Assembly: GCA_964519305.1 (NCBI GenBank)
Contig: CAZFHY010000001.1
Location: 1-64,000, forward strand
Origin: Candidatus Undinarchaeota archaeon
GTDB taxonomy: Archaea; SpSt-1190; JASMDC01
Length of the DNA: 64,000 bases
Direction: 5' to 3'
The position numbers and the translations under genes are program-made. Below are positions 31,526-46,677 of this stretch, piece after piece (within the stretch, counting starts at the first letter, position 1; every line of letters begins with the position of its first letter). The notes under the pieces are model-generated. The model saw only the letters and a list, made by a program, of their open reading frames with translations. It was not told the origin of the DNA and did not search any database.

Positions 31526-32400
31526 GGCAGGGCTGCATGGAGGTCGACACCATCCCCGAGGGCTTCGGTCGGGTCATGGCCCGTGTGCTCGTCACCGCAA
31601 AGGACGCTGCATGGGCCCACCGTGCTGCGGAGGCCGCCTGCGGGTTCGCCACGTCCCTCACCATGTGCCCTGCTGAATGCGGTATCGATGTTGAGGTCAA
31701 AGGTCAGGACACCCCTGATGGCAGGCCCGGCGTTGTGTTCATGGTCGTCCAGCGCACGCTCCCACTTCTAGAGGAGCAGCTCGTGGCCCGCATCTCGCAA
31801 TGTGTTCTGACAACCCCCACAGCGGCCTGCTTCAATGCACTGGAAAGTGACGAGGTCCTGCCCATCGGAAGCGAGGTCCAGCATTTCGGTGACAAGCTCT
31901 CAACCAAGGAGGAACTTACCGGTCGAACACTATGGCACATCCCTCTTATGGGCGGCGACTTCATAATCGAAGATACCTTCGGAGTCGCCCGTGGTGAATC
32001 GTACAAACTCTGGATAATGGGTAGCGAGATGGGCGCGCTCACCGCCGCAACGGCCGCTGCTGGAACGGCCTCGAACGTGGAGGGCGTGTTCCTCCCTTTC
32101 CCGGGCGGGATCTGTGCAGCAGGGTCCAAGGTGGGTTCGGTGCACTACCCCTCCCTCAAGGCCTCCACCAACCATCCCTACTGTCCAACGGTGCGAGACA
32201 AGGTAGAAAGCAGGCTTCCCGATGGGGTCGAGGCCGTGTACGAGCTCGTGATCACCGGTCTCGACCGCCGCCGGGTCGAAGAGGCGATGAGCGGGGCCGT
32301 CGAGGCGGCCGCTGCGAACGGAGCGGCCCGCATCTCTGCAGGTACGTTCGCGAAGAAGATGGTCGCGCGCCGACCCGACCTGTCCGACCTGCTAGACTGA
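31522..32400 (+). CDS. ftr: Formylmethanofuran--tetrahydromethanopterin formyltransferase (divergent)
   Basis: GFATS..MCPAECGID; TPDGRPG; RISQCVLTTPTAACF; PFPGGI..AGSKVGS; ASTNHPYCPT; VYELVI.G. GTGA overlap with mtd. Confidence 0.88.
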   Translation: MRQGCMEVDTIPEGFGRVMARVLVTAKDAAWAHRAAEAACGFATSLTMCPAECGIDVEVKGQDTPDGRPGVVFMVVQRTLPLLEEQLVARISQCVLTTPTAACFNALESDEVLPIGSEVQHFGDKLSTKEELTGRTLWHIPLMGGDFIIEDTFGVARGESYKLWIMGSEMGALTAATAAAGTASNVEGVFLPFPGGICAAGSKVGSVHYPSLKASTNHPYCPTVRDKVESRLPDGVEAVYELVITGLDRRRVEEAMSGAVEAAAANGAARISAGTFAKKMVARRPDLSDLLD

Positions 32401-33248: not shown

Positions 33249-34112
33249 TCAACGCTGGTCCATTAGCCAACGGTTCATCCTTATCCGGTTGATCTTACCC
33301 ACCCTCTCCTTGATTATGACCTTCTTTCGCTCCAGACGCTGGAGCGCGCGCGAGAGCGGGTACTTGTCGAGGGAAAGACGTGAGCGGATCGTGGTCTGTA
33401 GGAGCTCACCGTCCGACTTGAGCAGTTCCTGGACTATCGCCTTCTCAGTATCGTCCAGGGTCTTGAGCACATAGTCCAGTCCGCGCGTCGGTTCACCCTC
33501 TTCCTCCTCAGGCTCCCCCGCCTCTTCGGGATTGCGACTGATGGCCACAAGGTAGGCGGTCCACCCCAGGGCGAACACCAGAAAGACTATGGGCAGTGCA
33601 AGCGCCATCTCACCACTGAGCCTATAGGACACGTTGATGAGGCCAATGGGATCGTCAAAGCTCACGATGCGGGCCTCGACAAGGTGCTGCGAAGGGATCG
33701 TCGAGTTGCGTGGAAGGAAGTGGGCCCGCTCGGGAAGAGCGACCGAGTAGGTGATACCTTGTGTGAAGTGAGGTATGAAGGTCAGAGTGCTCGTCTTCCC
33801 ATCGGTCTTCACCAGACCTGAGATATCGTACTTGACCGTTACCGGGCCACCATAGGGATTATGGACCGAAAGCCGTTTGGAGGCAGCCGCGTAGTCGTAC
33901 GGGAGCATTCCGGAGCCTGTCCGTATATCGAAATCCCTGGGTTCATGGAGGAAGCGCATGGTGAGCGTCGTGTTCCTGACCATGTTGACCACATAGGATA
34001 CGTGGACCAGTCCATCTGCGTCCACGTCCAACCGACAGGAGTTGGGTAGCGCCTGGCCAAGTGTTACTAGGCAGAGCACAAGAGCGATAATTAGGACCTG
34101 GCTTCGGGTCAC
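33249..34112 (-). CDS. Membrane-anchored protein with extracellular domain and C-terminal wHTH (COG2512-like transmembrane regulator)
   Basis: Signal peptide, one TM, then LDDTEKAIVQELLKSDGELLQ...LSRALQRLERKKVIIKERVGKINRI. Start moved to the GTG at 34112. Confidence 0.8.
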   Translation of the reverse strand: MTRSQVLIIALVLCLVTLGQALPNSCRLDVDADGLVHVSYVVNMVRNTTLTMRFLHEPRDFDIRTGSGMLPYDYAAASKRLSVHNPYGGPVTVKYDISGLVKTDGKTSTLTFIPHFTQGITYSVALPERAHFLPRNSTIPSQHLVEARIVSFDDPIGLINVSYRLSGEMALALPIVFLVFALGWTAYLVAISRNPEEAGEPEEEEGEPTRGLDYVLKTLDDTEKAIVQELLKSDGELLQTTIRSRLSLDKYPLSRALQRLERKKVIIKERVGKINRIRMNRWLMDQR

Positions 34113-34134
34113 GGAGCGGACGTTCCTAATCAAC

Positions 34135-34142
34135 TTATATAA
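34135..34142. promoter_or_regulatory. Palindromic TATA box shared by divergent genes
   Basis: TTATATAA, 23 nt from GTG 34112 (-) and 27 nt from ATG 34169 (+). Confidence 0.65.
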
Positions 34143-34168
34143 ATCTTGTCGGGCGTTCGATTGTTCAC

Positions 34169-36982
34169 ATGGCACTTCATCGTCTGTTACGTACCATCTC
34201 AGCCATTGTCCTCGTCGCCCTGCTCCTGACACCGGGCAGCGCTATAGTCGCGGACGAGGTCGTTGAGGAGGTGGACATATCCACATTGAAGTACGCTCAG
34301 GTGGACATCACTTATGTTCTCCCGAGCCGCTACCTCGATACACTCGATGACCAGCTGCTCAACAGCAGATGCTCCCTGCTATCCTCGGTGACCGGGTGCC
34401 GTGCTTCGATCTACGGTGGCGAGGAGAAGGTAGTGTTCAACATGCTCGAGCCCAGCCCCGAGATAGGGGTCAGGGACCTCGACGTCCAAGAGGACCTCAT
34501 CAACGTCGAGTTCTACTTCAAGTACCTGCCCAAGCAATACGTGCTCGCCCAAGGACTGATGGTGCGTGAGCGAGGTATGAAGATCAGGTACCCCACCCAC
34601 ACGACCGTGCTCAACTACGTCCTGGACATGCCCCTCCTCTCGCAGTTCGCCATTTCCAGGCGGGCCGTCCCGTTCTCGGCCACGGTGGACAAGACGTCCT
34701 TCGTCATCGGTGAGACCATCCCTATCCCAAAGATCACAGAGGGCATATTCTGCATCGCCGCCCTCCTGGACGGCGACACGGTCATCGTCCGTGATTACTC
34801 GAGCACCTGTTCACCCTTCGAGCTCGGGACCACTTCGTTCATCCCCGAGGGCAGCTACGACCTATACCTCATCGCGCTCACCGGGAGCGCGACCAAGTAC
34901 AACAGTATCCGGGTGGACCTGGAAGCGTCCGATATCCCGACCTATCTGGATCTGGACAAGGACAGGTGCAACCTGGGCGAATCCTTCGTTGTGAAGGTCA
35001 CATCCTCCGAGGACCTCGACCGGTGCGAGGTGCACTTCATGGACCCCTTCGGCAACCAGGTGGAGGAGCGCACTTCGTACGATTGTGAGAACATAATCCT
35101 CGGAACGTCTCCCGCCCTGGTCCCTGGACGCTATCTCGTCAAGGCATATTCCTGGAAGGGAGAGGAGCGCGGGGCAGCTTCTATGAGCATCACCCTCGTG
35201 GGACAGGGCTACTCCTCCTCCGAGATCACCACAGACAGCAATGTGTACAACGCGGGCGACACTATCGAGGTGTACTCCGAATCCGAGGGCGACTACTGTC
35301 TGACCGAACTCTTCGACTCAGAGTACAACAAGGTCGCCGAGGCCGAATCTGTCGGATGCGAAGCCGTCGACATCCCGGCCCATGACAGTCTTGAGGCGGG
35401 CAACTACCTGATCAAGACCACCGTGAAGAAGAACGGACGCATCATCTCCGTGGCCCCCAAGGGGATCGAGATCAGACCCTGGTCGGAGCATAGCGGCACG
35501 GTCCAGTCCGACCTCTGCCAGCAGGGCAAGCTCTTCATCCTGGGCGAGCGCTTCCCCTGCATATCCACCGGCGAGGTGTGCATCCCGTCATCCTCATCCA
35601 AGCCGTTATGCCTCTGTTTCGACCAGAGCGGTAATCCGAAGGACTTTTGCGATTACGGCCACACATGCGGCCAGACCGGCTGCTCCGAAACGAAGGTGTT
35701 CAAGACGCCTTTCATCATAATCCGCGACCAGGGTAATTGCCTGGCACGCAAGGGCGACCAGACCATCTCCTGCATCGAGCTGGGCGAGATCTGTGGCGGT
35801 AACTGCGTGTGCATCAACGAGAAGGACCAGCCTCTATCTTCCTGTGTGGGTGGCGACTCCTGCACGTTCGAGGGATGCAGTCGCTCCACCATCGAGTTCG
35901 AGGTGACGTCGGTCAGTCCGGAAAGCGTGCGCGCGGACGAGCTGCGTGCCGGAAGTGCCGTTTCGTGGAAAGGACATATGCATATGGACGACCAGCTCTT
36001 CTCAGGGAGCAGGTCCCAGCTAGAGTTCACCATGCGACTGGGAACGATCACGCTCGAGGACGCTGACATCGAGGAGGAGTACGTCTCCGCCGCAGAGGGC
36101 TGGAAGGTGACAGGCACCTTCTCGGGCGACCTTGATCCCGGTAACTACGAGACGTTCCTCATGGTGAAGCGTGGCGAGGACGTCCACATCATGCGCAAGG
36201 CATTCCAGGTATGGTACCCCTTGTCCGAGAGCGCGCTGAACATCGAGCTCCGGTACGTCAATCCCGAGAAGATGTCCTATCGGGAGCTGGGTCTGGAAGG
36301 TGGAGGGATCGAACTGCACGCTCGTGTGACCAACCATGCGGGCCGTGCGCTCACCGGTAAGGACCTGCCACCCGATGTGTTCAATATGAGCCTTGAGGGT
36401 GCTGCTACGTCGCTCGGTGCGTTCTCCATGTCCGAACCGAAGTTCGACAAGAAGCTCGGTCTGTGGGTCATCAAGGGTACGTTCTACACGAAAGTGAGGA
36501 TCACCATCAGCAGGCTCGAACTTTCCATCATGCACCTGGGCAGGACAGGCGAGGCCACATCGCCCTTCGAACTGCTCGAGCACGTGCCACTCGAGATAAC
36601 CATCAGGACAACCGAACCTGGGAGCAACAAACCCATCTTCCACCTCATGGCCATCACCGGGTTCGACATCGATGTGTACGTGGACATCGAAGGCTCGTCC
36701 TCGCTGCAGAGCAAGGACTTCAATATCAAGATCGGGCACGTCGAGATCAAATCCGACTGTGGTACGGCGGACGGGGACCCCTGCATCGGTTACATAGTGG
36801 ACACCGAAAGGGGCGTGCGCATCCACCTCTCCAACATCAAGCTCTGTGAACTGGAGGACGTGTCATCCGACAGCGTCCGCAATCTCAGCATCGAGATCGA
36901 GGAGATGGGGCAGAAGGCCAGGGCCAAGACCCAATTGCGCATCGTCAGCAATCCCGGCAAGTACCAAGTGAGGTGTTCCTGA
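34169..36982 (+). CDS. Exported 937-aa Ig-like/Cys-rich protein, paralog of 4799
   Basis: Shared EEV.D.STL, IRYPTHTTV, CLAR.G..T..C.E.GEICG..CVC and C-terminal NPG...RC. Confidence 0.8.
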   Translation: MALHRLLRTISAIVLVALLLTPGSAIVADEVVEEVDISTLKYAQVDITYVLPSRYLDTLDDQLLNSRCSLLSSVTGCRASIYGGEEKVVFNMLEPSPEIGVRDLDVQEDLINVEFYFKYLPKQYVLAQGLMVRERGMKIRYPTHTTVLNYVLDMPLLSQFAISRRAVPFSATVDKTSFVIGETIPIPKITEGIFCIAALLDGDTVIVRDYSSTCSPFELGTTSFIPEGSYDLYLIALTGSATKYNSIRVDLEASDIPTYLDLDKDRCNLGESFVVKVTSSEDLDRCEVHFMDPFGNQVEERTSYDCENIILGTSPALVPGRYLVKAYSWKGEERGAASMSITLVGQGYSSSEITTDSNVYNAGDTIEVYSESEGDYCLTELFDSEYNKVAEAESVGCEAVDIPAHDSLEAGNYLIKTTVKKNGRIISVAPKGIEIRPWSEHSGTVQSDLCQQGKLFILGERFPCISTGEVCIPSSSSKPLCLCFDQSGNPKDFCDYGHTCGQTGCSETKVFKTPFIIIRDQGNCLARKGDQTISCIELGEICGGNCVCINEKDQPLSSCVGGDSCTFEGCSRSTIEFEVTSVSPESVRADELRAGSAVSWKGHMHMDDQLFSGSRSQLEFTMRLGTITLEDADIEEEYVSAAEGWKVTGTFSGDLDPGNYETFLMVKRGEDVHIMRKAFQVWYPLSESALNIELRYVNPEKMSYRELGLEGGGIELHARVTNHAGRALTGKDLPPDVFNMSLEGAATSLGAFSMSEPKFDKKLGLWVIKGTFYTKVRITISRLELSIMHLGRTGEATSPFELLEHVPLEITIRTTEPGSNKPIFHLMAITGFDIDVYVDIEGSSSLQSKDFNIKIGHVEIKSDCGTADGDPCIGYIVDTERGVRIHLSNIKLCELEDVSSDSVRNLSIEIEEMGQKARAKTQLRIVSNPGKYQVRCS

Positions 36983-38850
36983 TGGTCGAGCGCACACGAG
37001 GTCAGATGGCTCTCATCGGGCTCGCGGCGGTAGCACTGGTAGTCATCATGATCGTTTACATGATGAGCGGTAGCCGCAGGACCGAGACCGAGATCAATAT
37101 CAAGGACATCGAGTCCGCCGGCCTCAAGAGCGAGCTGGAGAAGGTGGAGAGCATCGTTACCGATATCTTCGAGGAGTCGATCCACTCCTCTGCGCTCGAG
37201 CTGGCACGTCATGGTGGGTATGCCCGCGGCAATGTACCGCCCCGCAATCTCGGGCTCACGCCGTACTGGTTCTACAAGGGGAACATCATCAACATCCCCT
37301 CGGTAGAGGTCATGACGGGCATGATGAAGGAGCGTATGGAATGGCGCATCCAGAACGATCTCAATGACCTGCGCAAGAACCTGCGGATGGACATGTTCCA
37401 CATCGGCCAGCCACGGGTCACCGTCACTCTCACCGATGTCCAGATCAACGCTGACCTGGAGCTACCTATCGAGGTAGTGCAGGGCGAGAACAAGGTCAAG
37501 ACCAAGATCGAGTTCACTCACACGGCACAACTACGTCTCAAGCTGTTACGCGACCTGGCCGAGAAGTACGTGCGTAATTACGCTGAAGTGCGTTACATGG
37601 AGCAGCAGTGGATGCACGGCGTCAACAACGATCCGCGGGTACCTAACACCCACGGTGCCGAGCCGGACGCGACGGGTCCCTGTACGACCTGCCAGGTCGT
37701 CAAGTACACGAAGCCGGGTATGACCTCAGCACTGCAGGAGCACGCTCAGCTCCACTCGTCAATGGAGCTCCAGCGTGCACGCAACCTACCTTTCTTCCAG
37801 AAGGACGCCAGTGGCGATCAGGTCAAGGACATCCAGCTCGACTTCAAGGCCAATGAGAAGGACCTCGAGTTCGAGTTCACCGCGAATCCGGGCGAGGCCT
37901 GCGAGAGCAACACCGAGGTATACCTCATCGAGCAGGGCAACACGGGCAGTGCGCCCATGGGCTCGTGCCAACATATGACCGTGACCTCCTATGACCTGTT
38001 CATGTTCCCGGTGGAGATCATCATCAGGGACCTGCTCAAGATCGGCATGGTCATGACCACAGAGACGGCCGAGACGACGACGGACCAGGACGGCAGCGCG
38101 ACAAAGAGCGTCGTCAAGCCCCTTGAGTTCCATATCGCCCTGAACTCCTACTTCACGACCGGTGATCCCAAGGCAGTGGACGGCTCTGTCAACGATCCTG
38201 AGACCGTCGATAACCTTTGTCAGGGAGCCTGCTCTATCGACATAAAGGCTACAAATGTCAACGAGGGCATGCTGTTCATCGACTCGTGCGAGTACGGGCC
38301 CGGCAACCACTTCACTGAGGCCAACGTACCCTGCGGTATCCACACCATCACGTTCAAGTCCATCGATCCCGCGGGCAAGGCCAAGTGGGTGAAGAGGGAC
38401 CCCATCACGGACAACTACCAGCTCGAGATCGAGGTCCAGGACTATGCATCGGTGAAGGGCACCATCAACATGAAGAACAAGGTGTACTGCACCCAGTCCA
38501 AGCGCGTGGAGGACAAGGGCCTCGAGACACTGGCGTACTACGAGGGCGATCCGCCTCGGACGATCAGGCTGTTCTTCTACCCCGTCAACCACAGGCTGGG
38601 AGAGATGGTGCATGCCGACATCGACGAGAACGGTGCCTACGAGGTCCCCGTTATCAATCCCGGGACATATCTGGTGCTTGCCTTCCCCACCGAGGACGCC
38701 TCACACCGCCCTACGCACAAGGTGCTGCCAAAGGGCCTGGTGATGGACATCGAGCCAGGTACTAACGACCTGAACATCGAGCTGGAGCCCATGCGCGTGG
38801 AGAAGGTCGGCGACAAGTACGTCAACGTGGTCGGAACCGAGGACTGTTAG
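36982..38850 (+). CDS. Large pilin-like protein 3
   Basis: RTRG|QMALIGLAAVALVVIMIVY; TGATG overlap; ELARHGGY...PYWFYKG; ends TEDC. Confidence 0.75.
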   Translation: MVERTRGQMALIGLAAVALVVIMIVYMMSGSRRTETEINIKDIESAGLKSELEKVESIVTDIFEESIHSSALELARHGGYARGNVPPRNLGLTPYWFYKGNIINIPSVEVMTGMMKERMEWRIQNDLNDLRKNLRMDMFHIGQPRVTVTLTDVQINADLELPIEVVQGENKVKTKIEFTHTAQLRLKLLRDLAEKYVRNYAEVRYMEQQWMHGVNNDPRVPNTHGAEPDATGPCTTCQVVKYTKPGMTSALQEHAQLHSSMELQRARNLPFFQKDASGDQVKDIQLDFKANEKDLEFEFTANPGEACESNTEVYLIEQGNTGSAPMGSCQHMTVTSYDLFMFPVEIIIRDLLKIGMVMTTETAETTTDQDGSATKSVVKPLEFHIALNSYFTTGDPKAVDGSVNDPETVDNLCQGACSIDIKATNVNEGMLFIDSCEYGPGNHFTEANVPCGIHTITFKSIDPAGKAKWVKRDPITDNYQLEIEVQDYASVKGTINMKNKVYCTQSKRVEDKGLETLAYYEGDPPRTIRLFFYPVNHRLGEMVHADIDENGAYEVPVINPGTYLVLAFPTEDASHRPTHKVLPKGLVMDIEPGTNDLNIELEPMRVEKVGDKYVNVVGTEDC

Positions 38851-39059: not shown

Positions 39060-40319
39060 TCACTGGCTCTGGCTCCACTGCTGGAACTGCTCCGCCCACT
39101 CGCCCTGGTTCGTAGGCTCTTCAGGCGGCGGCTCGTACGATGGCTGTTCTTCCCTCGGTTCGTTCGACCCAGTCATCATCTTCACGCGCTTGATCAGTTC
39201 CTTGATGCGCGGCATCTCCACACCGGCCAGCAGGATGACCACCTCGAACCGGTCGTAGCTGGAGATGACGGCGTTCCCCCAGCGCACGGTACCGCCGGCG
39301 CCATCATTGAGCTGGCTCCCGAGCCAGCTGATTGCCTCGTGGAGCTCGGAGACCTTGGGCGAAGTGGGTCCGGCGACGATGAGCGCCGCTGAGCGGGCAC
39401 TGGTGTACACCGCCTGGGTCGTCGTCCCCTGGAGCACTGCCATCTGGACCAGATTGGTGAGGCTCGAGCGGGCGTTCCCCTCGGCGTCCACGGGCGCTTC
39501 TGCCCGTCCCAAGCAGCACAGCACGCCGTAGTCGCTGGTCTTTGCCTCGAGGATCGTGTTCTTCAGGTCAGTGGAGTCCATGACCAGGTCCTGCTCCTGC
39601 GAGATGGGCAGGCCCGAGATGGTCAGCAGCTTGATCTGCTTGAGGATCTCCCGGTTGATCTGGTCGAAGATCTCGTTGATACCCACCCGCCCACGGACAT
39701 GGGCAGGGATGCGCTCGTAGAACCACTCGTTGTCGGCGATGATGAGCCCGTCCAGGCGGGGCAGGAGGTTCTTCATTCCCCATAGTGCGTTCTCCTCGTA
39801 CCGGCCGCTCTCGTACCCGAAGGGCAGCAGCCCGATGCCGATCTTGACGAAGTCGTTCGGGTTAACGACGTGGCGCTGGATGAACACCTCGTCGATTATG
39901 TCCGCCGCCACCGGTGAGCACCCGCAGCCGGAACCGCCGCCAAGGGAGGTGACGATAAAGCAGAAGTGGGGCATGATGCCGCGGCCAAGGGTGTTGACTG
40001 TGATGGTGTTTCGGATGAGGTCGCGGTTCTGGTTGGCCACACCCTTGCAGTACTCGGGATTGCCGCCGCACCCCTTTCCTCCGCCGATCAGGATGCGCGA
40101 CTCCTCGGGGATGTTGAGGATGTTGAGGTCGCGGATGTTGGTGTTCAGGGCCACCGAGGCGAAGTAATCGTCCACACGCAGAGTGGAGATGCCCATGGAA
40201 CGGGCGAAGGTCAGCATCTGGCTGACCACCGAGCGCTGGAACTCGGCCACGGCGTCGAGCACGCGGGTGCCCCCCTGACCCAGCCCCATTGCGAATATCT
40301 GGCTTCCTGAGACGTCCAT
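39060..40319 (-). CDS. cetZ: Tubulin/FtsZ-superfamily GTPase, CetZ-like
   Basis: GLGQGG; ALNTN..DL; GKGCGGNP; SLGGGSGCG signature; LLPF..E; IIADN; T7-like MDSTDLKNTI; VVILLAGV.MPRIKEL. Start 40319 or 40328. Confidence 0.8.
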   Translation of the reverse strand: MDVSGSQIFAMGLGQGGTRVLDAVAEFQRSVVSQMLTFARSMGISTLRVDDYFASVALNTNIRDLNILNIPEESRILIGGGKGCGGNPEYCKGVANQNRDLIRNTITVNTLGRGIMPHFCFIVTSLGGGSGCGCSPVAADIIDEVFIQRHVVNPNDFVKIGIGLLPFGYESGRYEENALWGMKNLLPRLDGLIIADNEWFYERIPAHVRGRVGINEIFDQINREILKQIKLLTISGLPISQEQDLVMDSTDLKNTILEAKTSDYGVLCCLGRAEAPVDAEGNARSSLTNLVQMAVLQGTTTQAVYTSARSAALIVAGPTSPKVSELHEAISWLGSQLNDGAGGTVRWGNAVISSYDRFEVVILLAGVEMPRIKELIKRVKMMTGSNEPREEQPSYEPPPEEPTNQGEWAEQFQQWSQSQ

Positions 40320-40337
40320 GATGCACACTTCCCTTGC

Positions 40338-41309
40338 TCAGCCGAACAGGTCCTCCTCGAGCGTCTTCTTCTTAGGCGCGGCCCGCTCGCCGAAGCGTAC
40401 GTCCTCGAGCTCGCCCATGAGGTCGGCCTCGAGACTGACGGCCTTACGCGCTTCTTGTTCGGCCCCTGCACGGACCTCCATGAAATAATTATATATCTTC
40501 TGATAACGCGGCCGGAAAGTCAGGGAGAACAGTTCATAGTCCGGTGTGGGCGCGATGAAGGGGCGCACGCCTGGGATTATGCCAGGTGGTTCCTCGGGCA
40601 TGCACACGTAGGAGAACGAGTTATCGGTGAGGGAGAAGTCGGAGGCGCACACGTTCTGGAGGATGGCCGTGTTCAGGTCCATGCCCTGGAGGCTCTCTGC
40701 GAACGACGGTACGCACAGTTCGCCGGTGAGGCCGTCCGAGGCCAGGTACTGGCGCATGCCGTACTTGCTGTTGAGGCCCCTGAGGATGTCGAGCATGTAC
40801 TGGACGAACGTGTCCATGCGCTCGAACGCCGTGTGCTGGTCGAGCGCCTTTACCTTGCTCGTCAGTCGCTCCTCCTCGAGCACGATGACCAGGTCGGCGG
40901 TCTCTTTCATGTCCACCATCGTGGAGATTAGGTGGCGCTTGGCCTGCATGGGGTACTCCTTCATGTAGGGGAGCAGGAGGACGGCGCAGAGGAAAGCGTC
41001 GGGCTGGTACTGGCGGACGCGCTCGAAAGCGTGTGCGGCCAGCGCCCCGTACTCGGTGGTGGGATTGAGCAATGCCACGCTCATGCCATCGGTCATGTCC
41101 AGGGAGTGGTCCACCCAATCCCGGACAAGCCCCATCTTGAATTCGCGCTTGCTGGTGTCGTCGGAGATCTCGATCTTGAGGCATTTATTCCGATCGAACT
41201 CCTTGAGGTCGCTGATGCTCGCCGACGCCAGTGCGAAGGGTGCGCGGTGGCGCTCAGTGTACCGCTCGATCCATGTGGCGCCGAAGGTCCCGAGCCCGAT
41301 GAGGTTCAT
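40338..41309 (-). CDS. Degenerate tubulin/CetZ-fold protein lacking the GGGTG signature
   Basis: MNLIGLGTFG; AVLLLPY..E; ADLVIVLEEERL; acidic tail ending LEEDLFG. ATGA overlap with the upstream gene sets the start at 41309. Confidence 0.6.
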   Translation of the reverse strand: MNLIGLGTFGATWIERYTERHRAPFALASASISDLKEFDRNKCLKIEISDDTSKREFKMGLVRDWVDHSLDMTDGMSVALLNPTTEYGALAAHAFERVRQYQPDAFLCAVLLLPYMKEYPMQAKRHLISTMVDMKETADLVIVLEEERLTSKVKALDQHTAFERMDTFVQYMLDILRGLNSKYGMRQYLASDGLTGELCVPSFAESLQGMDLNTAILQNVCASDFSLTDNSFSYVCMPEEPPGIIPGVRPFIAPTPDYELFSLTFRPRYQKIYNYFMEVRAGAEQEARKAVSLEADLMGELEDVRFGERAAPKKKTLEEDLFG

Positions 41310-43105
41310 AAGCCAACCCACTCCCGCATGATACGCTTCCAGATGAACTTGCGTGCATGCTCGATCAATTTGAACCTGACGGTCACGTACATGATGCCCC
41401 CGGTCACCGCGAACAGGATGAGCAGGAACAGGACCCGCTGGCGGAACCGGTTCACCTCTACCGCGCAGGTGCCGTCCTCCTGTCTGACGTTGTCGTTCAT
41501 GAGCCCCTGGAACGTACCGAGCTCCTCGCACGCCTGGGGCATGCACACGTCGTTCTCGCAGTAGAAGCCCTTGATGCACCCGCAGTCGCTGCAGCAGTAC
41601 GGCTTCTCGATATCGAGGCAGAGGGTGTCACCGCACTTGATGTCGTACGCTCGGCGAGGTGCGTCGGTGAGGGTGCCCGTGAACCTCAGCCCTTCTTTGA
41701 AGCTCATACCGTCGGGGAGAGACATGGTCACCCATTCGTCCCCCTGGGGGAGTCGGATGCGCCACTCGCCGGCGTTCTTCGTCCTGTCCATGAGGCCCGG
41801 GACGGTGAAGGTGACGTTCTGCTCCTTGACCAGCATCCCCGCGATGGGCGTGACGTCGATATCGTTGCCGTGGACCGTTCCGTTGAGAGGGGATAGGAGG
41901 GCGGGGCCCGTGGCGTTCTCCATCCGCCATTCTACCAGCGACAGCACGCCGTCGGGATTGGCGGAGAGCACGTCGGCCTCGCCGTAGGCCTTCATGTCCT
42001 CGATCTCGCGCAGACGGAGCACGGCATGGCCTGAGCCGTCGGATAACAGGCTGAGAGTGATGTTACGCCTTCTGCTCGGCGGGAAGAGCACCTCCAACCG
42101 GTGCTGGCCTCCACGGTACGCACTCCCGTCCACCTCTACGTGCATTACCGCTTCATTGTGCATGATGTACTTCAGCCCGGGGGTAGCAGGAGCGCGTGTC
42201 CGGTACGCTACCGCCTTGCGCTCGCCAGCACCGAGGCTGAGGTTGACGGATAGGACGTTACCTACACCCTGGATATACACCGGCGCCAGCGCACCACCAA
42301 GGTACTCCAGGCGCGGGTTCGTCGGCTCGTCCAGCCGGATCTTCACGGATTGACGCCCCTGGTTCACCAGTGTGAAGTTTACCTGGAAACCCTCGCCCTG
42401 GACGGCCTTTGCTGGCATCGACCGGCCCATGGACAGCTTCGGGCGTTCCAATGCCCAGGTGATGAGCGTACGAGCGATGGGGAGCTTCTCGCGGAGCACG
42501 CACAGCCTCCTCGAGCAGTTCAGGCCGGGGACAACGTGAATGCCAGGCGCCTCGACATCGAACTTGAAGATGAACCATGTGAAATCGTCGAACCGTGAGC
42601 CGTTGATCCGCAGGGCATAGGGGAAGACCTCCTTGTGGACGTCCTCCAGCGGTGCGGCGGCCGTGTACACCAGGTCGTGCCGGGCGTAGGGGCCGAAGGG
42701 CAGTTCCCGGGTGTGCAGCGCTACAAGCTCCTCCCTCATTCCTGCAGCCTCGCGTGTCAGGTCTGCGCCCATGACCGAGACGTTCATGGCCCCCAGGTCC
42801 TCGCTCAGGTGGTTAGCCAACCGGATAATGGCCTTGCGCACGACCGTGTCATTGGGGCCAAGGACCACCGTGTAGAGCACCTCGTCCACGGTCACCGTGG
42901 TGAGGTCCATCGACCATATGTCAGCGTCGTCCGCAGCAGGCTCCTCGTGGATTTCGACGGGGGCGTCCGTGACATTGGACGGGACATCGGTGGCGTTGAC
43001 CGGGAGGTCGGTGGCGTTGACAGCAGCGGTCCCGTTGTCATCCTGTGCTACTGCCAGGGACATGAGGAGGAGGGCCATCACCAGGATAATCGTAGTTCGC
43101 GCCAT
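41306..43105 (-). CDS. Type I membrane surface protein (Ig-like domains, Cys-rich module, C-terminal TM)
   Basis: Signal MARTTIILVMALLL; NATD repeats (N-glycosylation sequons); FQVNFTLVNQG; CGDTLC...CCSDCGC..G..C; TM plus basic tail. RBS GGTGGTGA. Confidence 0.8.
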   Translation of the reverse strand: MARTTIILVMALLLMSLAVAQDDNGTAAVNATDLPVNATDVPSNVTDAPVEIHEEPAADDADIWSMDLTTVTVDEVLYTVVLGPNDTVVRKAIIRLANHLSEDLGAMNVSVMGADLTREAAGMREELVALHTRELPFGPYARHDLVYTAAAPLEDVHKEVFPYALRINGSRFDDFTWFIFKFDVEAPGIHVVPGLNCSRRLCVLREKLPIARTLITWALERPKLSMGRSMPAKAVQGEGFQVNFTLVNQGRQSVKIRLDEPTNPRLEYLGGALAPVYIQGVGNVLSVNLSLGAGERKAVAYRTRAPATPGLKYIMHNEAVMHVEVDGSAYRGGQHRLEVLFPPSRRRNITLSLLSDGSGHAVLRLREIEDMKAYGEADVLSANPDGVLSLVEWRMENATGPALLSPLNGTVHGNDIDVTPIAGMLVKEQNVTFTVPGLMDRTKNAGEWRIRLPQGDEWVTMSLPDGMSFKEGLRFTGTLTDAPRRAYDIKCGDTLCLDIEKPYCCSDCGCIKGFYCENDVCMPQACEELGTFQGLMNDNVRQEDGTCAVEVNRFRQRVLFLLILFAVTGGIMYVTVRFKLIEHARKFIWKRIMREWVGL

Positions 43106-43107: not shown

Positions 43108-44673
43108 TCACCACCCCAGGTACCAGTAGGCCTCCTCGAACTTTTTGACGTACTCCTCGGGCGTGTGCCGCCTCAGGTTCTCCGACTCGACCACGAACTT
43201 GAAGCGGACGATACCGCCTCCTCCACCGATCCGCCATCGGACGAAGAACAGGAACGATACGAAGGCGAAAGCGAACGATACCGCCACGAAGGTGCACTCG
43301 AACCCGTAGATCTCGCACACTAGGCCCGCAGGATGGAGGGTGACCGGGAATGTCTCGTTCCCCGCCTCGAAGCCACGGTAGTAGATACGACCGATGAGGT
43401 TGCAGGCGAGCGGTTCACGGGTCGCGGGCGTGCTCACGTTGCACCGGTCTATACCGTACTCGCCAGCTCCGCAGTGTCGGTCGAGCAACGTCTCGTTCCC
43501 TCCGCAGCGAAGGAAGAGCTCATAAGGAAGACCGGGGTCAGTGAGGCTGGCGAACACGATGGTACTTGCGTTCCCCTCGATGTCCTTTGCTACTGGCCGG
43601 AACTGCTCGAAAGCGGGTGAGAACTCCCTCACCTCGATCTCCAGCCCCTCCTCCTGCTCGTCGCCGTCCGTGGAGAAGGTCACCGATCCCTCGTAGATGA
43701 TCCGGCCCTCGTACTCGTGGAGTGGCAGGCGTCCCAGGTGGAGCGGGCAAGTGATCTCGTCGAGGATGTTGGTGCAGGCCTGGTCCACCGGAAGGGTCTG
43801 ATTGACGTACGCGGTGTTGTTCCAGGTGAGGATGATCGAGATCGTGTTGTCGCGCTGGAGTATATCGTTCCACTTCTCAATGGATGTGTTTACGACCACG
43901 GGATCGTACTGGTTCACGAGCCGGGTGTAGTTGGTAAGAGTGAACAAGGGGTCCTCGGCGTACACGACCGCGAAGGGCGTCTCCATGTAATCGACGATGC
44001 GCGATCCAGTTACGATCTCAAGGCGCGCCGTGTACCTCCCTCGCTCGTCGGGCACGTCCACGCTCACCGCATGTCGGATGCTGCCCTGCATATCGCAGCT
44101 GAGGTCGATCGGTTGATGGCTGCGCGCAACGACCTCCCGGCCCGGCCCGAGCACGTACAGGGTCGTGTTGTAGCTCACACCGTACTCCGGGCGTCGGATG
44201 ACGTAGTCGATATAGAGCTGCTCTCCGGGGCCGAACACGTCCTTGCTCAAGCCAGCCTCGAGCGCGGTGTTGACGAAGAACACGGTATGGATGTTGAACG
44301 GGATGGACTCTGACACGGGGGACGTGACATCGTAGGTGAAGTAGATCGTGTGGTCACCAGGGGTGCTGCATAGCGGGGCCTTCGTCAGGATGGTGAACGC
44401 ACGCTCGACGTCCTTGCGCACCTCGAGCTTGGGCAGACCGCCCGGGTAATCGGTACCCCAGTGGTACTGGGAGTTCGTATCGTTCTTCCGGTTGGCGATG
44501 CCGTACGCGGGCTCATCGATAAGACCGCGTACCGTGACCTTGTGGACGCCCTGGTCGCCAGGGAGGAGCACGTGGCGTACGTTCTGTACGTCGACGAGGA
44601 CCTGCTCGCCCGCAGAGACGCTCGCAGCGCACAGAGCGCATACGAGAACGAGAACAAGAAGCTTGGACGGCAA
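43108..44673 (-). CDS. Type I membrane surface protein with Ig-like domains
   Basis: Signal peptide; LSKDVFGPGE...GRYTARLEI beta-sandwich; many NxT sequons; C-terminal TM with cytoplasmic tail. Confidence 0.8.
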   Translation of the reverse strand: MPSKLLVLVLVCALCAASVSAGEQVLVDVQNVRHVLLPGDQGVHKVTVRGLIDEPAYGIANRKNDTNSQYHWGTDYPGGLPKLEVRKDVERAFTILTKAPLCSTPGDHTIYFTYDVTSPVSESIPFNIHTVFFVNTALEAGLSKDVFGPGEQLYIDYVIRRPEYGVSYNTTLYVLGPGREVVARSHQPIDLSCDMQGSIRHAVSVDVPDERGRYTARLEIVTGSRIVDYMETPFAVVYAEDPLFTLTNYTRLVNQYDPVVVNTSIEKWNDILQRDNTISIILTWNNTAYVNQTLPVDQACTNILDEITCPLHLGRLPLHEYEGRIIYEGSVTFSTDGDEQEEGLEIEVREFSPAFEQFRPVAKDIEGNASTIVFASLTDPGLPYELFLRCGGNETLLDRHCGAGEYGIDRCNVSTPATREPLACNLIGRIYYRGFEAGNETFPVTLHPAGLVCEIYGFECTFVAVSFAFAFVSFLFFVRWRIGGGGGIVRFKFVVESENLRRHTPEEYVKKFEEAYWYLGW

Positions 44674-44699
44674 CCTATCACAACACCACAGCGGGTATC

Positions 44700-44707
44700 T
44701 TTATATC
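44700..44707. promoter_or_regulatory. TATA box midway between divergent operons
   Basis: TTTATATC about 25 nt from both TTG 44673 (-) and ATG 44731 (+) in a 57-bp gap. Confidence 0.55.
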
Positions 44708-44730
44708 TCTTGCACGAAAGGAAGCCCCTG

Positions 44731-46677
44731 ATGGCCTCCCTGAAGCTCGACAGGAACAGGTGCACGAAGTGCGGAAAGTGCGTGGTCGCATGTCCGAACA
44801 ATGCCATCGTCATGCGTAACTTCCCTGCGTTCTGCAAGCACTGCGACCTCAAGGCCGCACCGTGCTACCAGGCCTGCCCGCTGGGCGCCATCGTGGACGT
44901 AGGTAACGGTATTCTCAAGGTGGACGTGAACCGCTGCGATCCCTACCAGTGCAAGAAGGAGTGCCAGAAGTGGTGTCAGTGGGATGGCGTGTTCGTGTTC
45001 GGCGACAAGGCCAAGAAGTGCGATCTGTGCTTCGACTACCAGAACCAGCCCAACTTCATCCCCAAGTGCATCGAGGTGTGCGACGCCAAGGCCATCACCA
45101 CCGACCTCATGCAGGAGGTCGTGCTCGACTACGCAGGATGGAGCGCCGAGTCCATTCCCCAGGAGATCATCGCAGAGGTCCTCCAGAGCTTCACCTACGG
45201 CCAGGTCGTCAAGGTGCAGGGCCAGCCGGTCCCGTACTACTACGTCAACTCGCTACCCCAGCTCACCGACTGGGCCCAGACCAAGCTCCTGGGTCTCACC
45301 ATCAAGAAGTACATCGACACCGGCAAGGCGGACCAGGACCCGTTCTCCTCGCTGATGATGATCATGCGCAAGTCCGCCCAGTGGGTGGGCACCAGCGTGG
45401 ACGAGAACATGCTAAAGGAGCTCGCCAACATCGCTCTCATGAACACGAAGGGCTACGGGCCCTTCGACGTCCTCCTCGAGGACGACCAGCTGGAGGAGTT
45501 GATGTGCATCGGCCTCGGTAAGGAGAGGCCAATGTATGTCTACCACCGCGAGTACGGGATGCTGCGGACCAACCTGTTCTTCCCCGACGAATACATGGAC
45601 TTCACGGTGGACCCACCGGAGAAGAAGTCCGGCGAGGAGGTCCTGTGGAAGATCATCGAGAAGATGATCGAGCCCATGGGGGAGCGTATCGACCGCCAGC
45701 ACCCCAGGGTCAACGCGCAGCTGCCGGACGGCTCCCGTCTCCACGCGTGCATCAAACCAATGGGATTCTCCGGACCGTCGGTGACGATCCGAAAGTTCCG
45801 GGCCGCACCGTTCTCGCCCATCGACACCATCAGGTTCAACACCATCTCTCTGGAGGCCGTGGTGTACTGCTGGATCGCAATGGAGAGCGAGATCTCGATG
45901 ATCGTGGCCGGAAACACAGGTTCCGGAAAGACCACCTCGCTCAACGCATTCTCTACGTTCATCCCTCCCGAGGAGCGCATCCTCATCCTCGAGTCAACGC
46001 CCGAAATCAATCTGCCCCACCCGCACAAGGCACGTCTGGTCACCGTCAACAACGCTGACCCGCCCATCGGTATGCAGGACATCATCGAGGACACGCTGCG
46101 TATGCGGCCCGACCGTGTGGTAGTAGGAGAGGTCCGGAGCGGCCCAGAGGCACAGGCGTTCATGAACTCGGTACTGGCAGGTCAGGCACGCGGTTCCATG
46201 TGCACGTTCCACGCACAGGACGCAGTATCTGTCGTCAAGCGTATGAAGAACCCTCCCATGAACATCTCACCTCTCGACCTGCAGGTCCTGGACCTCGTCT
46301 TCGTCCAGCGACGTATGTCGCGGGTCGAGGGCAGCAAGCGGAAGCAGATCCGTCGCGTCGTCGAGATCGCCGAGATCGACAAGCATAATATGAGCGACGA
46401 GGGCGTACCGGTCATCCATCCGATCTATCGCTACAATCCGGACACCGATGTCGTCGAGCGCGTGCACTCGGGTCTGTCCCCGCTAGAGGAGCGCATATCC
46501 AAGTACAACCTCTGTCTCGACGAGGGGCAGTTCTGGGGCGAGGTACAGGCGAGGACCAAGATGCTCAAGTACCTGATGGCCAACAACATCCGTGACATCA
46601 AGGTCTTCATGGACTACATCATCCAGTACGGTACGGATCCTGCTTTCAAGCAGAGCATAATCAACATGAACATCTGA
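44731..46677 (+). CDS. TadA/CpaF/VirB11-family secretion ATPase with N-terminal multi-[4Fe-4S] ferredoxin domain
   Basis: CTKCGKCVVACP, CKHC...PCYQACP, CDPYQCKKECQKWCQ, CDLC...KCIEVCD; LPDGSR; TIRKF; Walker A GNTGSGKTT; LRMRPDRVVVGEVR; TFHA. Confidence 0.9.
   Translation: MASLKLDRNRCTKCGKCVVACPNNAIVMRNFPAFCKHCDLKAAPCYQACPLGAIVDVGNGILKVDVNRCDPYQCKKECQKWCQWDGVFVFGDKAKKCDLCFDYQNQPNFIPKCIEVCDAKAITTDLMQEVVLDYAGWSAESIPQEIIAEVLQSFTYGQVVKVQGQPVPYYYVNSLPQLTDWAQTKLLGLTIKKYIDTGKADQDPFSSLMMIMRKSAQWVGTSVDENMLKELANIALMNTKGYGPFDVLLEDDQLEELMCIGLGKERPMYVYHREYGMLRTNLFFPDEYMDFTVDPPEKKSGEEVLWKIIEKMIEPMGERIDRQHPRVNAQLPDGSRLHACIKPMGFSGPSVTIRKFRAAPFSPIDTIRFNTISLEAVVYCWIAMESEISMIVAGNTGSGKTTSLNAFSTFIPPEERILILESTPEINLPHPHKARLVTVNNADPPIGMQDIIEDTLRMRPDRVVVGEVRSGPEAQAFMNSVLAGQARGSMCTFHAQDAVSVVKRMKNPPMNISPLDLQVLDLVFVQRRMSRVEGSKRKQIRRVVEIAEIDKHNMSDEGVPVIHPIYRYNPDTDVVERVHSGLSPLEERISKYNLCLDEGQFWGEVQARTKMLKYLMANNIRDIKVFMDYIIQYGTDPAFKQSIINMNI

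Follow-up and report, generated by a model that had tools for sequence, protein, structure and literature searches.

A putative, very diverged tubulin-superfamily homolog with a degenerate nucleotide pocket, encoded beside a CetZ-like GTPase in an archaeal type IV filament locus

In an archaeal type IV filament (T4F) locus, a gene for a CetZ-like GTPase (P0002) is preceded by a gene for a protein, P0001, that appears to be a very distant member of the tubulin superfamily with a degenerate nucleotide pocket. The original prediction, that the pair combines an intact CetZ-like GTPase with a degenerate-pocket homolog, is borne out by the motif comparison and by profile scores above shuffle and genome controls. 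We favour, with modest confidence, the explanation that P0001 is a diverged superfamily member that acts as a non-catalytic partner of P0002 filaments in the T4F locus. Its inferred elements are that P0001 no longer binds GTP, that it joins P0002 in a heteromer, as an adaptor or cap, and that the membrane proteins are connected with the pair.

Results

Organisation of the locus

Both open reading frames were found at the positions predicted in the 64-kb window (the whole stretch of DNA that was analysed). The start of P0001 at 41309, proposed from an ATGA overlap, was confirmed: the minus strand reads ...GGCTT ATGA ACC..., with the ATG of P0001 at 41309-41307 and the TGA of the upstream gene at 41308-41306. 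The P0001 stop codon (40340-40338) is followed by an 18-nt spacer and by the P0002 ATG at 40319, with GTG at 40328 as an alternative start. With the ATGA overlap upstream and this short spacer, P0001 and P0002 are probably translationally coupled. The features of the locus are the following:

33249..34232, minus strand: candidate membrane-anchored winged-helix (MarR/DUF7343-like) regulator, at the edge of the locus
34169..38850, plus strand: two large secreted proteins, a convergent pair, of 937 aa (with signal peptide) and 625 aa, from ORFs and hydropathy
39060..40319, minus strand: P0002, 419 aa, CetZ-like GTPase of the tubulin superfamily, with all loops from T1 to T7 intact
40338..41309, minus strand: P0001, 323 aa, putative and very diverged paralog in the tubulin/CetZ superfamily, nucleotide pocket degenerate
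41306..43105, minus strand: type I membrane surface protein of 599 aa, by ORF and hydropathy
43108..44673, minus strand: type I membrane surface protein, 521 aa, with signal peptide (1-27), transmembrane segment (~451-482) and 39-aa cytoplasmic tail
44461..46677, plus strand, divergently transcribed: secretion ATPase of type IV filaments (ArlI/FlaI/PilB class) that carries a 4Fe-4S ferredoxin-like domain at its N-terminus
46690-47967 (425 aa) and 47995-48897 (300 aa), plus strand: two PilC/ArlJ-class platform-protein genes (Pfam T2SSF)

P0001, P0002 and the two single-pass surface proteins form a predicted co-transcribed four-gene operon on the minus strand, which opens with the 521-aa gene, 2 nt before the 599-aa start. 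The latter is probably the ATG at 43105, an internal start in a listed ORF that extends to 43318. In agreement with the prediction of two transmembrane surface proteins encoded with the pair, a Kyte-Doolittle scan gives both of these upstream gene products a signal peptide, a large ectodomain, a single C-terminal transmembrane segment and a short tail; the 599-aa protein has an ectodomain rich in N-glycosylation sequons and a tail of ~18 residues. It matches no Pfam family, and the 521-aa protein has only a sub-threshold Pfam match (MG2).

The secretion ATPase matches Pfam T2SSE (3.7e-32) and Fer4 (1.8e-7), and NCBIfam FlaI at 3e-68, under the equivalog cut-off; as listed, its ORF runs into the 521-aa gene, so translation probably begins downstream of 44461. 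The platform genes match Pfam T2SSF (2e-9 and 3.4e-13) and, weakly, the NCBIfam ArlJ/UpsF/BasF models, with ArlJ/UpsF under their equivalog cut-offs. The 937-aa and 625-aa proteins, for which no Pfam family passes its cut-off, probably serve the locus as filament or adhesin subunits. By eye, the N-terminus of the 625-aa protein (…RTRGQ, then a hydrophobic stretch) resembles a class III (prepilin) signal, and pilin-like N-termini (RGQ or RAQ, then hydrophobic) occur in the 625-, 602- and 616-aa proteins. The regulator candidate contains transmembrane segments and matches DUF7343 (2.8e-6) and MarR_2 (8.7e-5), both slightly under the Pfam cut-off. No prepilin peptidase is encoded within the window; a Peptidase_A24 gene lies on contig C15, directly upstream of the closest paralog of P0002 and overlapping it by 4 nt.

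With its secretion ATPase and platform genes, the locus is, by gene content, an archaeal T4F locus, a context absent from the original prediction. Such a neighbourhood is already known for CetZ, which excerpts of PMC9856176 and PMC13705601 place beside pilB/pilC regulons, for CetZ2 in Halobacteria and for CetZ in Thermococcales.

P0002 is an intact CetZ-like protein

Judged by its domains and loops, P0002 is a CetZ-like, GTPase-competent protein. It scores 61.6 bits with Pfam Tubulin (cut-off 33; 1.5e-16) and 45.3 bits with CetZ_C (cut-off 21.6; 8.4e-12), the two domains (PF00091 and PF21011) of the CetZ family, which includes CetZ1 and CetZ2 of H. volcanii (PDB 4b46 and 4b45) and Methanosaeta CetZ (3zid). 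Its best solved relatives are 4b46 (E 5e-17) and 4b45 (E 3e-16), the latter titled as H. volcanii CetZ2 in the Foldseek listing. The loops GLGQGG, GKGCGG, GGGSGCG, LPFGYE..EEN, ADN, FDQIN and T7 MDSTD are all intact. P0002 differs from the family by two insertions and by its C-terminal tail, WAEQFQQWSQSQ, which is Gln/Trp-rich (...WSQSQ) and lacks the CetZ hydrophobic end motif. The C15 gene is the nearest paralog of P0002 (E 5.5e-50), and the two form a clade with support of 99/100 in a 25-row tree that has an open backbone and includes no named reference CetZ.

P0001 is a putative remote member of the superfamily

P0001 shows a weak, remote similarity to the tubulin family, of modest significance and above controls. 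Public records label the protein 'hypothetical protein'; it has no match in Pfam at E up to 1 (PF00091 and CetZ_C PF21011 included) or in NCBIfam, none among PDB sequences by phmmer or family profile, and none to P0002 by BLASTP. The blanks in Pfam, NCBIfam and PDB sequences would fit a protein outside the superfamily, that is, a lineage-specific alpha/beta (Rossmann-like) protein with a chance or convergent beta-alpha-beta likeness. So would the reverse search of the whole genome with a P0001-family HMM, which was not significant (the best hit is a non-tubulin, with 11 bits and E 0.17, and an FtsZ comes fourth, with E 0.74), and the extent of the statistically supported similarity, which is limited to residues ~98-176, with only ~75 residues spanned.

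Several results argue against that alternative. A custom tubulin-family HMM, built from 18 archaeal sequences, scores P0001 at 18.1 bits, P0003 at 19.9 and P0004 at 14.9, over S5-T5-H5-S6-H7, while 500 shuffles reached at most 4.2 bits. When all six-frame ORFs of the genome with 80 aa or more (20,258) were scored, P0001 ranked seventh (17.4 bits, E 0.0024), behind the six training tubulins, and is the sole non-training, non-tubulin ORF with E <1, the next one having 8.7 bits and E 1. With hhalign, the P0001 family matches the 18-sequence alignment with Prob 69% and E 4.4e-5, in an extended alignment that is collinear end to end; on the other side, Prob is only 5.9% with a CetZ-only alignment and <1% with most single sequences. 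Twenty-two sequences aligned by MAFFT without supervision are also collinear, with near-invariant G5, G7, G10, G88, A94, P114, D139 and G196. Outside the scored core, collinear matches are found in the N-terminal T1 GxGxxG, in S8 (...CMPEEPP vs ...VAGPPE), in S9 (VRPF..P vs VR.G.YP) and in the tail motif.

The structural evidence bears on both readings. The ESM Atlas features of P0001 reach 0.92 with tubulin/FtsZ clusters, and the ten best family-bearing matches all belong to one clan. An alignment-free AF2 model is poor (pLDDT 36), and the Foldseek list obtained with it is dominated by tubulin-superfamily chains, with gamma-tubulin, CetZ 3zid and FtsZ in the top places (E 3e-4 to 1e-2, ~100-125 columns), but also contains NAD synthetase and USP-like Rossmann folds. 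With a mixed, tubulin-containing alignment, the AF2 model improves to pTM 0.71 and pLDDT 65, with Foldseek TM values of 0.54-0.60 to FtsZ/CetZ and a VIA-align Z of ~21 over residues 1-288. The good AF2 and ESMFold2 models are partly circular, because the input alignment already contains tubulins, and this conditioning of the strong models again suits the Rossmann-like reading. The C-terminal domain rests on collinearity, on model regions with pLDDT 51-68 and on weak Atlas leads of 0.85-0.86. The tubulin/FtsZ fold that had been anticipated for P0001 has some backing from the HMM, the Atlas and Foldseek, but not from a confident alignment-free model, and the full two-domain model is alignment-conditioned. 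With P0001 also adjoining a CetZ gene, we consider an origin outside the superfamily distinctly unlikely, and we treat P0001 as a diverged member in what follows.

In the tree, P0002 groups with the C15 paralog, and P0001 has no supported sister and a stem of 3.65 substitutions per site; the branches of both proteins are long, and the backbone lacks resolution.

The nucleotide pocket and the C-terminal peptide

All the strings on which the original prediction was built are present: NLIGLGTFG, LLNPTTEYG, AVLLLPYMKE, ADLVIVL and the LEEDLFG tail in P0001, and the GTP loops (including LLPFGYE) and the tail in P0002. In P0001 the T1 GxGxxG is kept, with GLGTFG aligning to GLGQGG, GIGQAG and GAGGAG at the N-terminus. 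T3 (GxGxG) falls in a ~25-column gap and is absent, the T4 segment reads LLNPTTEYGA and has no GGGTG(S/T)G (identically in 3/3 family members that cover it), and T6 is LEEE vs (D/I)DN elsewhere. The T5 Pro/Glu is retained (AVLLLPYMKE; E118), and so are the Phe and Asp of H7 (AFERMD; F162, D166). At T7 (NxDxxD/E) the assignment differs between methods: MAFFT aligns QYLASD of P0001 with VVDSSE / NLDFAD, which preserves the second acidic residue (D192) but not the first, and hhalign places this region elsewhere. An 11-column gap follows at the expected H8, H7 of the model runs into the following helix with hardly any loop, and P0001 carries deletions around H8 and H10.

Lacking its phosphate-binding loops (T3, T4 and T6), P0001 very probably neither binds GTP canonically nor hydrolyses it. 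The label 'catalytically dead' of the original prediction agrees with this loss, but is too simple, as P0001 retains T1, the Glu of T5 and the Phe/Asp of H7.

P0001 ends in ...TLEEDLFG, and its tail region is highly conserved, down to a family fragment of 63% identity that ends in ...EEELFG. The predicted resemblance to CetZ C-termini holds: according to excerpts of bioRxiv 10.1101/2024.04.08.588506, the C-terminus of H. volcanii CetZ1 is LESLF, and its mutation abolishes rod formation. Canonical CetZ-like tails in our comparison set end in ...DIEPLI, ...DIESL, ...IKPLF and ...ELEPLF. By this comparison, a CetZ1-type acidic-hydrophobic end peptide is present in P0001 and missing from P0002.

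Conservation and predicted association of the pair

Relative to the sister species, P0001 has a dN/dS of 0.10 (dS 0.34; N-terminal half 0.054) and is therefore a maintained gene; the value for P0002 is 0.068. L009, L010 and L011 carry an identical gene, and the 63% fragment, which keeps the tail motif, lies on a contig of 1,055 bp; the P0001 family is confined to one uncultured genus plus this fragment. Persistence of the adjacency in other genomes, on which the original prediction depended, was found in the sister species, the only other one available. There an inserted two-gene module on the opposite strand splits the membrane-protein genes from the pair, with ~1.2 kb between the genes. The 599-aa and 521-aa proteins are 82% and 87% identical to their sister-species counterparts, and their tails, in the original prediction a possible anchor for the pair, show no stronger conservation than the ectodomains.

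A complex prediction for P0001 and P0002, run with custom, uncalibrated alignments and a riding GTP, returned 'weak support', with a score of 0.58 (runs 0.59, 0.48 and 0.58) vs 0.00 for the best of three controls; in the band of 0.58, passes are more often wrong than right unless the complex is likely beforehand. The mark is reached by 58 of 80 solved complexes and by 2 of 110 mismatched pairs, and at 0.60 or below by 7 of the 80 and by both passing mismatches. Partner pLDDT is at least 77 and the runs agree in at least 53% of contacts, and no interface was reported. The pass may reflect memory, because tubulin-family dimers have already been solved. The model lends weak support to a physical P0001-P0002 heteromer.

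P0001 could instead be tubulin-like and independent of P0002, serving as a static scaffold or adaptor for the T4F machinery or for the membrane-protein tails, with the adjacency reflecting shared regulation only. The degenerate nucleotide loops, and possibly T7/H8, suggest that both longitudinal faces of P0001 may be altered; together with the conserved tail, the shared operon of the two membrane proteins and the weakness of the complex prediction, this is compatible with such a role. It is nonetheless P0002, immediately downstream, that the sister species keeps, and the membrane-protein genes that are split off; the tails that P0001 might hold are conserved no more than the ectodomains, and 0.58 is far above all three controls. 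We regard an independent scaffold as unlikely.

In alpha/beta-tubulin and in BtubA/BtubB, both subunits bind GTP and both keep T4, and only the T7 catalytic residue differs. These systems resemble the present one as two adjacent or co-expressed tubulin-fold paralogs with unequal catalytic roles, but P0001 lacks the phosphate loops altogether and its heterodimer is weakly predicted. The asymmetric heterodimer originally put forward by loose analogy with them has weak support from the complex score, and GTP binding by both subunits does not fit P0001, which lacks T3 and T4. An alternating P0001/P0002 heteropolymer of that type would require P0001 to hold a nucleotide or nucleoside non-canonically, as a structural ligand, by T1, the Glu of T5 and the Phe/Asp of H7. 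It can draw on the retained base and ribose contact positions (F162, D166, E118 and the T1 glycines, only the phosphate loops being lost), on the similar purifying selection on both genes and on the weak complex prediction. It is very improbable in our view: complete loss of T3 and T4 removes every canonical phosphate contact, the T7/H8 region, which seems shortened in alignment and model, would break one of the two longitudinal faces required, and the prediction reported no interface.

Discussion

In the mechanism we favour, P0002 would form GTP-dependent CetZ-type filaments beneath the membrane, and P0001 would dock onto P0002 by an interface like that between tubulin subunits, acting without catalysis as adaptor, cap or regulator of assembly. 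P0001 would also provide the CetZ-type docking peptide (...LEEDLFG) that P0002 has lost, so that the jobs of a canonical CetZ, polymerising GTPase and tail-mediated docking, would be split across the two proteins. The two-protein assembly may then give the filament machinery, or its surface proteins, their position or organisation. A stronger form of this proposal, a 'split CetZ', is doubtful: here P0001 would be a nucleotide-free pseudo-tubulin that sits obligately on the end or side of P0002 filaments, sets their polarity, length or nucleation, and docks them by its C-terminal peptide to the T4F base or to surface adhesins.

The excerpts of the CetZ literature consulted hold no mention of a tandem pair of intact and degenerate CetZ. 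P0002 has both Pfam domains and T1-T7, and P0001 is collinear with the family and has a CetZ1-like end peptide, but fails both Pfam models and lacks T3, T4 and T6. Tandem CetZ-like arrays of other archaea (three genes in G041, two in G017; L012, L015 and L032) are likewise adjacent, on the same strand and of unequal length (384 + 338 + 371 aa), with short members that end in ...IKPLF; unlike P0001, every member read keeps GGGTG (3/3 in L032) and none is degenerate.

A closer parallel in the pocket is a GTP-loop-less CetZ_C paralog of Archaeoglobi (Archaeoglobaceae 'cell division protein', e.g. L039:9233-10141). It has ~303-320 aa, keeps the T1 GxGxxG and has lost T3 and the T4 GGGTG (LSLEDEYAF, vs LLNPTTEYGA in P0001), and a canonical CetZ co-exists in the same genome. 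It is class-wide, with matches in 81/81 genomes at E up to 1e-5. In contrast to P0001, it scores ~83-86 bits with Pfam CetZ_C, has a strongly conserved T7 (GEVVVDTSD), and lies among housekeeping genes, apart from the canonical CetZ. It shows no significant similarity to P0001 by hhalign (Prob 0.3%), so the two probably degenerated independently.

A functional analogy may be proposed with plant ARC3, whose FtsZ-like domain is not known to have GTPase activity. Excerpts of PMC12232670, which lists Shaik et al. 2018 among its references, describe a diverged FtsZ-like domain that directly regulates the chloroplast FtsZ polymer; ARC3 differs in being eukaryotic and multidomain (FtsZ-like + MORN), with a gene apart from FtsZ.

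CetZ controls archaeal cell shape and the placement of the motility machinery. P0001, under selection and probably co-transcribed, with its phosphate loops lost and a docking tail kept, would suit a dedicated partner or regulator of the CetZ polymer. Together with the Archaeoglobi paralog, it suggests that the tubulin superfamily has repeatedly given rise to pseudo-GTPases in archaea, and that the more diverged ones escape curated models. If the 'split CetZ' were true, archaea would have invented, independently, a non-catalytic tubulin that works like gamma-tubulin or a cap, and this principle would have its second example in the class-wide, GTP-loop-less CetZ of Archaeoglobi.

An operon pairing a CetZ-like GTPase with a probable diverged homolog

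The minus strand of the window carries, from 44673 to 39060, four closely packed ORFs, which are given here together with the neighbouring genes discussed below.

44673-43108, minus strand: ORF of a 521-aa membrane protein
from 43105 (most plausible ATG), minus strand: second membrane-protein gene, listed as 670 aa, 599 aa from this start
41309-40338, minus strand: P0001, a diverged 323-aa protein, whose ATG overlaps the TGA of the gene before it (ATGA)
40319-39060, minus strand: P0002, a 419-aa CetZ-like GTPase, 18 nt after P0001
44461-46677, plus strand: ATPase of the ArlI/PilB class, its N-terminal part a 4Fe-4S domain (T2SSE 3.7e-32, Fer4 1.8e-7; FlaI model 3e-68, below cut-off)
with the ATPase gene, divergent from the operon: two PilC/ArlJ-class genes
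convergent with P0002: two genes, one for a 937-aa secreted protein, the other for a 625-aa protein whose N-terminus resembles that of a prepilin (by eye)

The ATG at 43105 lies 2 nt past the preceding stop and opens a signal peptide beginning MARTTIILVMALLL... Both the 599-aa and the 521-aa protein have a big ectodomain behind a signal peptide, then a single TM segment at the C-terminal end with a short tail. A promoter and terminator scan, with models that do not cover archaeal promoters, gave nothing above shuffles.

P0002 exceeds the cut-offs of the Pfam families Tubulin (61.6 bits against 33) and CetZ_C (45.3 bits against 21.6), and its best solved relatives are 4b46 (E 5e-17) and 4b45 (E 3e-16), the latter titled H. 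volcanii CetZ2 in the Foldseek listing. Its nucleotide and catalytic loops T1-T7 are all intact. The protein is divergent, with just two other proteins at E < 1e-5 in 5.8 billion clusters, and it is most closely related to a paralog that the same genome carries on contig C15 (E 5.5e-50; clade support 99/100). In this genome (3.63 Mb in 42 contigs, ~60% GC, with 15 other sampled genomes of the class at 0.6-1.2 Mb), Pfam recognizes six genes of the tubulin family, three FtsZ-like and three CetZ-like; by HMM, no P0001-like partner lies beside the two other CetZ-like genes.

Probable remote homology of P0001 to the tubulin superfamily

The original prediction described the protein encoded upstream of P0002 as an apparently catalytically dead tubulin homolog, and the sequence strings on which it relied are all found in the P0001 and P0002 translations. 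P0001 gave no match in Pfam (E up to 1), NCBIfam or the PDB sequences, searched with the protein and with its family profile, and BLASTP against P0002 was empty. A tubulin-family HMM of 18 archaeal sequences, comprising the six of this genome and CetZ-like genes of other archaea, scores P0001 at 18.1 bits, its sister-species ortholog P0003 at 19.9 bits and the 208-aa fragment P0004 at 14.9 bits, over the S5-T5-H5-S6-H7 segment of the tubulin fold. Run with filters off on every stop-to-stop ORF of 80 aa or more in the genome (20,258 in all), this HMM ranks the P0001 ORF 7th with E 0.0024, behind the six training genes, while the next ORF reaches 8.7 bits (E 1); none of 500 shuffles of P0001 rises above 4.2 bits. 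Comparison of the P0001 family with the 18-sequence alignment by hhalign yields Prob 69% and E 4.4e-5, and at low stringency the two are collinear over residues 1-308. The same register is recovered by unsupervised MAFFT of 22 sequences, in which G5, G7, G10, G88, A94, P114, D139 and G196 are near-invariant. By ESM Atlas features, the whole protein groups with tubulin/FtsZ clusters (0.92), and the C-terminal part alone gives weak leads (0.85-0.86), with TubZ_C and CetZ_C clusters in the top five.

Several comparisons were less favourable. Against a CetZ-only alignment the hhalign Prob falls to 5.9%, and against most single sequences to below 1%. The reverse search, with the P0001-family HMM against the whole genome, was not significant (an FtsZ ranked 4th, E 0.74); against ORFs that neighbour CetZ genes in other archaea, the top four matches are all CetZ-like and weak (E 0.019-0.88). 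Phylogeny gave P0001 no supported placement. The remote-homology evidence is weak to moderate. We consider it likely that P0001 belongs to the tubulin superfamily, and the reading as a dead homolog is probably right.

Structure prediction by AF2 without an alignment gave a pLDDT of 36, unusable as a model, for which Foldseek nevertheless lists gamma-tubulin, CetZ (3zid), FtsZ and an Asgard tubulin in the lead (E 3e-4 to 1e-2), over ~100-125 columns and with a few Rossmann-like enzymes mixed in. With the mixed MAFFT alignment, AF2 reached a pTM of 0.71 and a mean pLDDT of 65 (70-89 in blocks of the N-domain, 51-68 in the C-domain and below 50 in the tail). This model matches FtsZ/CetZ with TM 0.54-0.60 and tubulins with Z ~21 (285-288 residues aligned, rmsd ~4 Å), figures that describe the model and do not prove the fold, because the input alignment already contains tubulins.

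Nucleotide pocket and C-terminal tail

P0001 keeps the T1 motif GxGxxG (GLGTFG), the Pro and Glu of T5 (LLPYMKE), the S6 Asp (D139, the sole invariant column) and the Phe...Asp of H7 (AFERMD; compare SFKVAD in FtsZ). The Asn of T5 is His in P0001 of the window and Asn in the three other family members. T3 is lost, falling in an alignment gap, T4 reads LLNPTTEYGA in place of GGGTGSG, and the DN of T6 is replaced by LEEE. T7 is ambiguous: MAFFT aligns QYLASD with VVDSSE and NLDFAD, which would preserve the second acid (D192) and not the first, and an 11-column gap follows at the expected position of H8; hhalign places the register differently, and in the model there is almost no loop past H7. 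With these losses, the phosphate-binding half of the pocket is gone and the base and ribose positions are kept in part, and P0001 would not be expected to bind GTP canonically.

P0001 ends in ...LEEDLFG and P0002 in ...QQWSQSQ. According to bioRxiv 10.1101/2024.04.08.588506, H. volcanii CetZ1 has LESLF as its last residues, and replacing them by AESGG is reported to abolish rod development. The CetZ-like proteins of the analysed set end in ...DIEPLI/V, ...DIESL, ...IKPLF or ...ELEPLF. What a canonical CetZ combines, GTPase and docking peptide, is divided here between P0002 and P0001, and it is mainly for this reason that a partner or adaptor role is favoured for P0001.

Selection, relatives and linkage

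P0001 is a maintained gene. Relative to the sister species (93-94% protein identity), its dN/dS is 0.10, with dS 0.34, and in the degenerate N-terminal half dN/dS drops to 0.054; the value for P0002 is 0.068. The 63% identical fragment P0004 retains extended identical segments, among them ...LMGELE.VRFGERA... and the EE(D/E)LFG at the end. We sought relatives of P0001 in 5.8 billion clusters (with the single sequence and with an alignment), 1.84 billion representatives, 41 related genomes, and metagenome and genome contigs, and found, among proteins of comparable length, only the sister species and this 208-aa fragment; fused or split forms may exist. The family is restricted to one uncultured genus and one fragment. 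Three matches among the 1.84 billion representatives (P0008-P0010) were rejected as spurious, being repeat proteins (two of them were read). Public records label the P0001 cluster 'hypothetical protein', and the MAG labels for this cluster conflict, between Candidatus Undinarchaeales and Methanopyri.

The linkage comparison covers one other species: the gene is identical in L009, L010 and L011, and G001 belongs to the same genus. In this species the order of P0001 and P0002 is kept, with a spacing of ~18 nt, while two opposite-strand genes separate the membrane-protein genes from the pair, in a gap of ~1.2 kb; what lies downstream of P0002 is different as well. This insertion indicates that the conserved unit is the P0001-P0002 pair and not the four-gene block. 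The two inserted genes, between the gene of a 659-aa membrane protein and the P0001 homolog (L011:6792-7806), are a candidate nucleotidyltransferase/HEPN-type pair (by eye; GSxxRG...DxD), and a second candidate pair of this type, also by eye, lies downstream of the P0002 homolog (L011:10253-11265); both modules are absent from the window.

Anchoring of the pair by the tails of the two membrane proteins, as originally proposed, would be hypothetical. The cytoplasmic tails of both are 84-85% identical to the sister species, against 82-87% for the whole proteins, and as they are conserved no more than the rest, the comparison lends tail-mediated anchoring no support.

Predicted contact between P0001 and P0002

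The complex was predicted with ESMFold2, using P0002 with its own alignment and GTP along, and P0001 as the partner with its own alignment, the alignments being uncalibrated. The score is 0.58 (runs of 0.59, 0.48 and 0.58), against 0.00 for the best of three controls, which counts as 'weak support'; the partner pLDDT is at least 77 and the contact agreement at least 53%, and no interface is given. Of 80 solved complexes, 58 attain the mark, as do 2 of 110 mismatched pairs, and scores at the mark but not above 0.60 comprise 7 of the 80 solved complexes and both passing mismatches. Because longitudinal dimers of the tubulin family are solved, the pass may reflect memory of the family rather than this specific pair. 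The prediction modestly raises the odds of direct P0001-P0002 contact, which we place at, or just short of, an even chance. An asymmetric heterodimer, cap or nucleator, the mechanism originally suggested, would be one hypothesis for such a pair.

Degenerate CetZ paralogs and tandem arrays elsewhere

The window is not the only place with a degenerate CetZ paralog. Archaeoglobi encode a paralog of ~303-320 aa (L039:9233-10141, plus strand; L038:9225-10130, minus strand; L040-L051) with a match to CetZ_C only, which keeps T1 and, like P0001, lacks T3 and T4 (the T4 region reads LSLEDEYAF), whereas its T7 is conserved (GEVVVDTSD). It is matched in 81 of 81 sampled genomes (E up to 1e-5), with a canonical CetZ also present, and the T4 signature is absent from all 12 orthologs compared; source records name it 'cell division protein' (Archaeoglobaceae). 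Unlike the P0001-P0002 pair, it does not adjoin the canonical CetZ gene, and hhalign between P0001 and these paralogs was not significant. A possible role of the Archaeoglobi protein is that of a T7-only cap, or of a GTPase activator, for CetZ filaments.

Other archaea also have CetZ-like genes in tandem, three in one genome (G041) and two in another (G017). The G041 array (L032, contig C20) encodes proteins of 384, 338 and 371 aa on the same strand, all three with GGGTG, which P0001 has lost. A 270-aa signal-peptide/TM protein lies between its second and third CetZ-like genes, and same-strand tandem arrays are also found at L012 and L015.

Both subunits of alpha/beta-tubulin and of BtubA/B bind GTP, which makes these the looser analogies to P0001-P0002. 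The closest functional analogy to the role proposed for P0001 is plant ARC3, whose FtsZ-like domain is not known to have GTPase activity. In PMC12232670, ARC3 is described as carrying this FtsZ-like domain and regulating FtsZ assembly. Full-text literature searches and term look-ups in PMC9856176 gave no description of CetZ/FtsZ paralogs without GTP loops in archaea; Table S1 or Figure S1 of that paper may list 'non-canonical TSF'.

Type IV filament context

In the window ATPase, the Fer4 match lies at residues ~96-116, along with more Cys-rich repeats, a fusion that is unusual for this ATPase class. A second paralogous surface-protein block (2714-29964, plus strand) encodes proteins of 616, 924 and 602 aa, the first and third with N-termini that by eye are prepilin-like; the 602-aa protein ends in ...ATEDC (compare ...GTEDC in the 625-aa protein). 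Three giants (2141, 2109 and 2638 aa) come next, with near-identical C-termini, ...NCDC(D/E)C(I/V)Y, and for these no Pfam family turned up. A methylene-H4MPT dehydrogenase and a formylmethanofuran:H4MPT formyltransferase are encoded at 30596-32400.

The gene of the P0002 paralog on contig C15 (382 aa, GGGTG intact; within L030:6024-7813) shares 4 nt with the Peptidase_A24 (prepilin peptidase) gene upstream of it, and this locus is a second link between CetZ and type IV filaments in the genome. It continues with a 425-aa membrane protein and then a PrsW-like protease. The third CetZ-like gene (contig C8, within L031:4564-13550; 427 aa) has a very long branch, ends in ...EMEFFSGG and is followed by three signal-peptide/TM surface proteins (650, 327 and 957 aa). 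The gene that precedes it, in divergent orientation, encodes 620 aa, with domains of the ubiquitin family (Pfam ubiquitin 9.7e-9) and UBX-like type.

According to PMC9856176, CetZ lies beside pilB/pilC regulons in the case of Halobacteria CetZ2 and in all analysed Thermococcales, and PMC13705601 describes a type IV filament 'subsystem 4F' that co-localises with CetZ2. The presence of CetZ among type IV filament genes is therefore an already known theme; what is new here is the combination with a presumably co-transcribed, putative pseudo-GTPase paralog that carries the tail.
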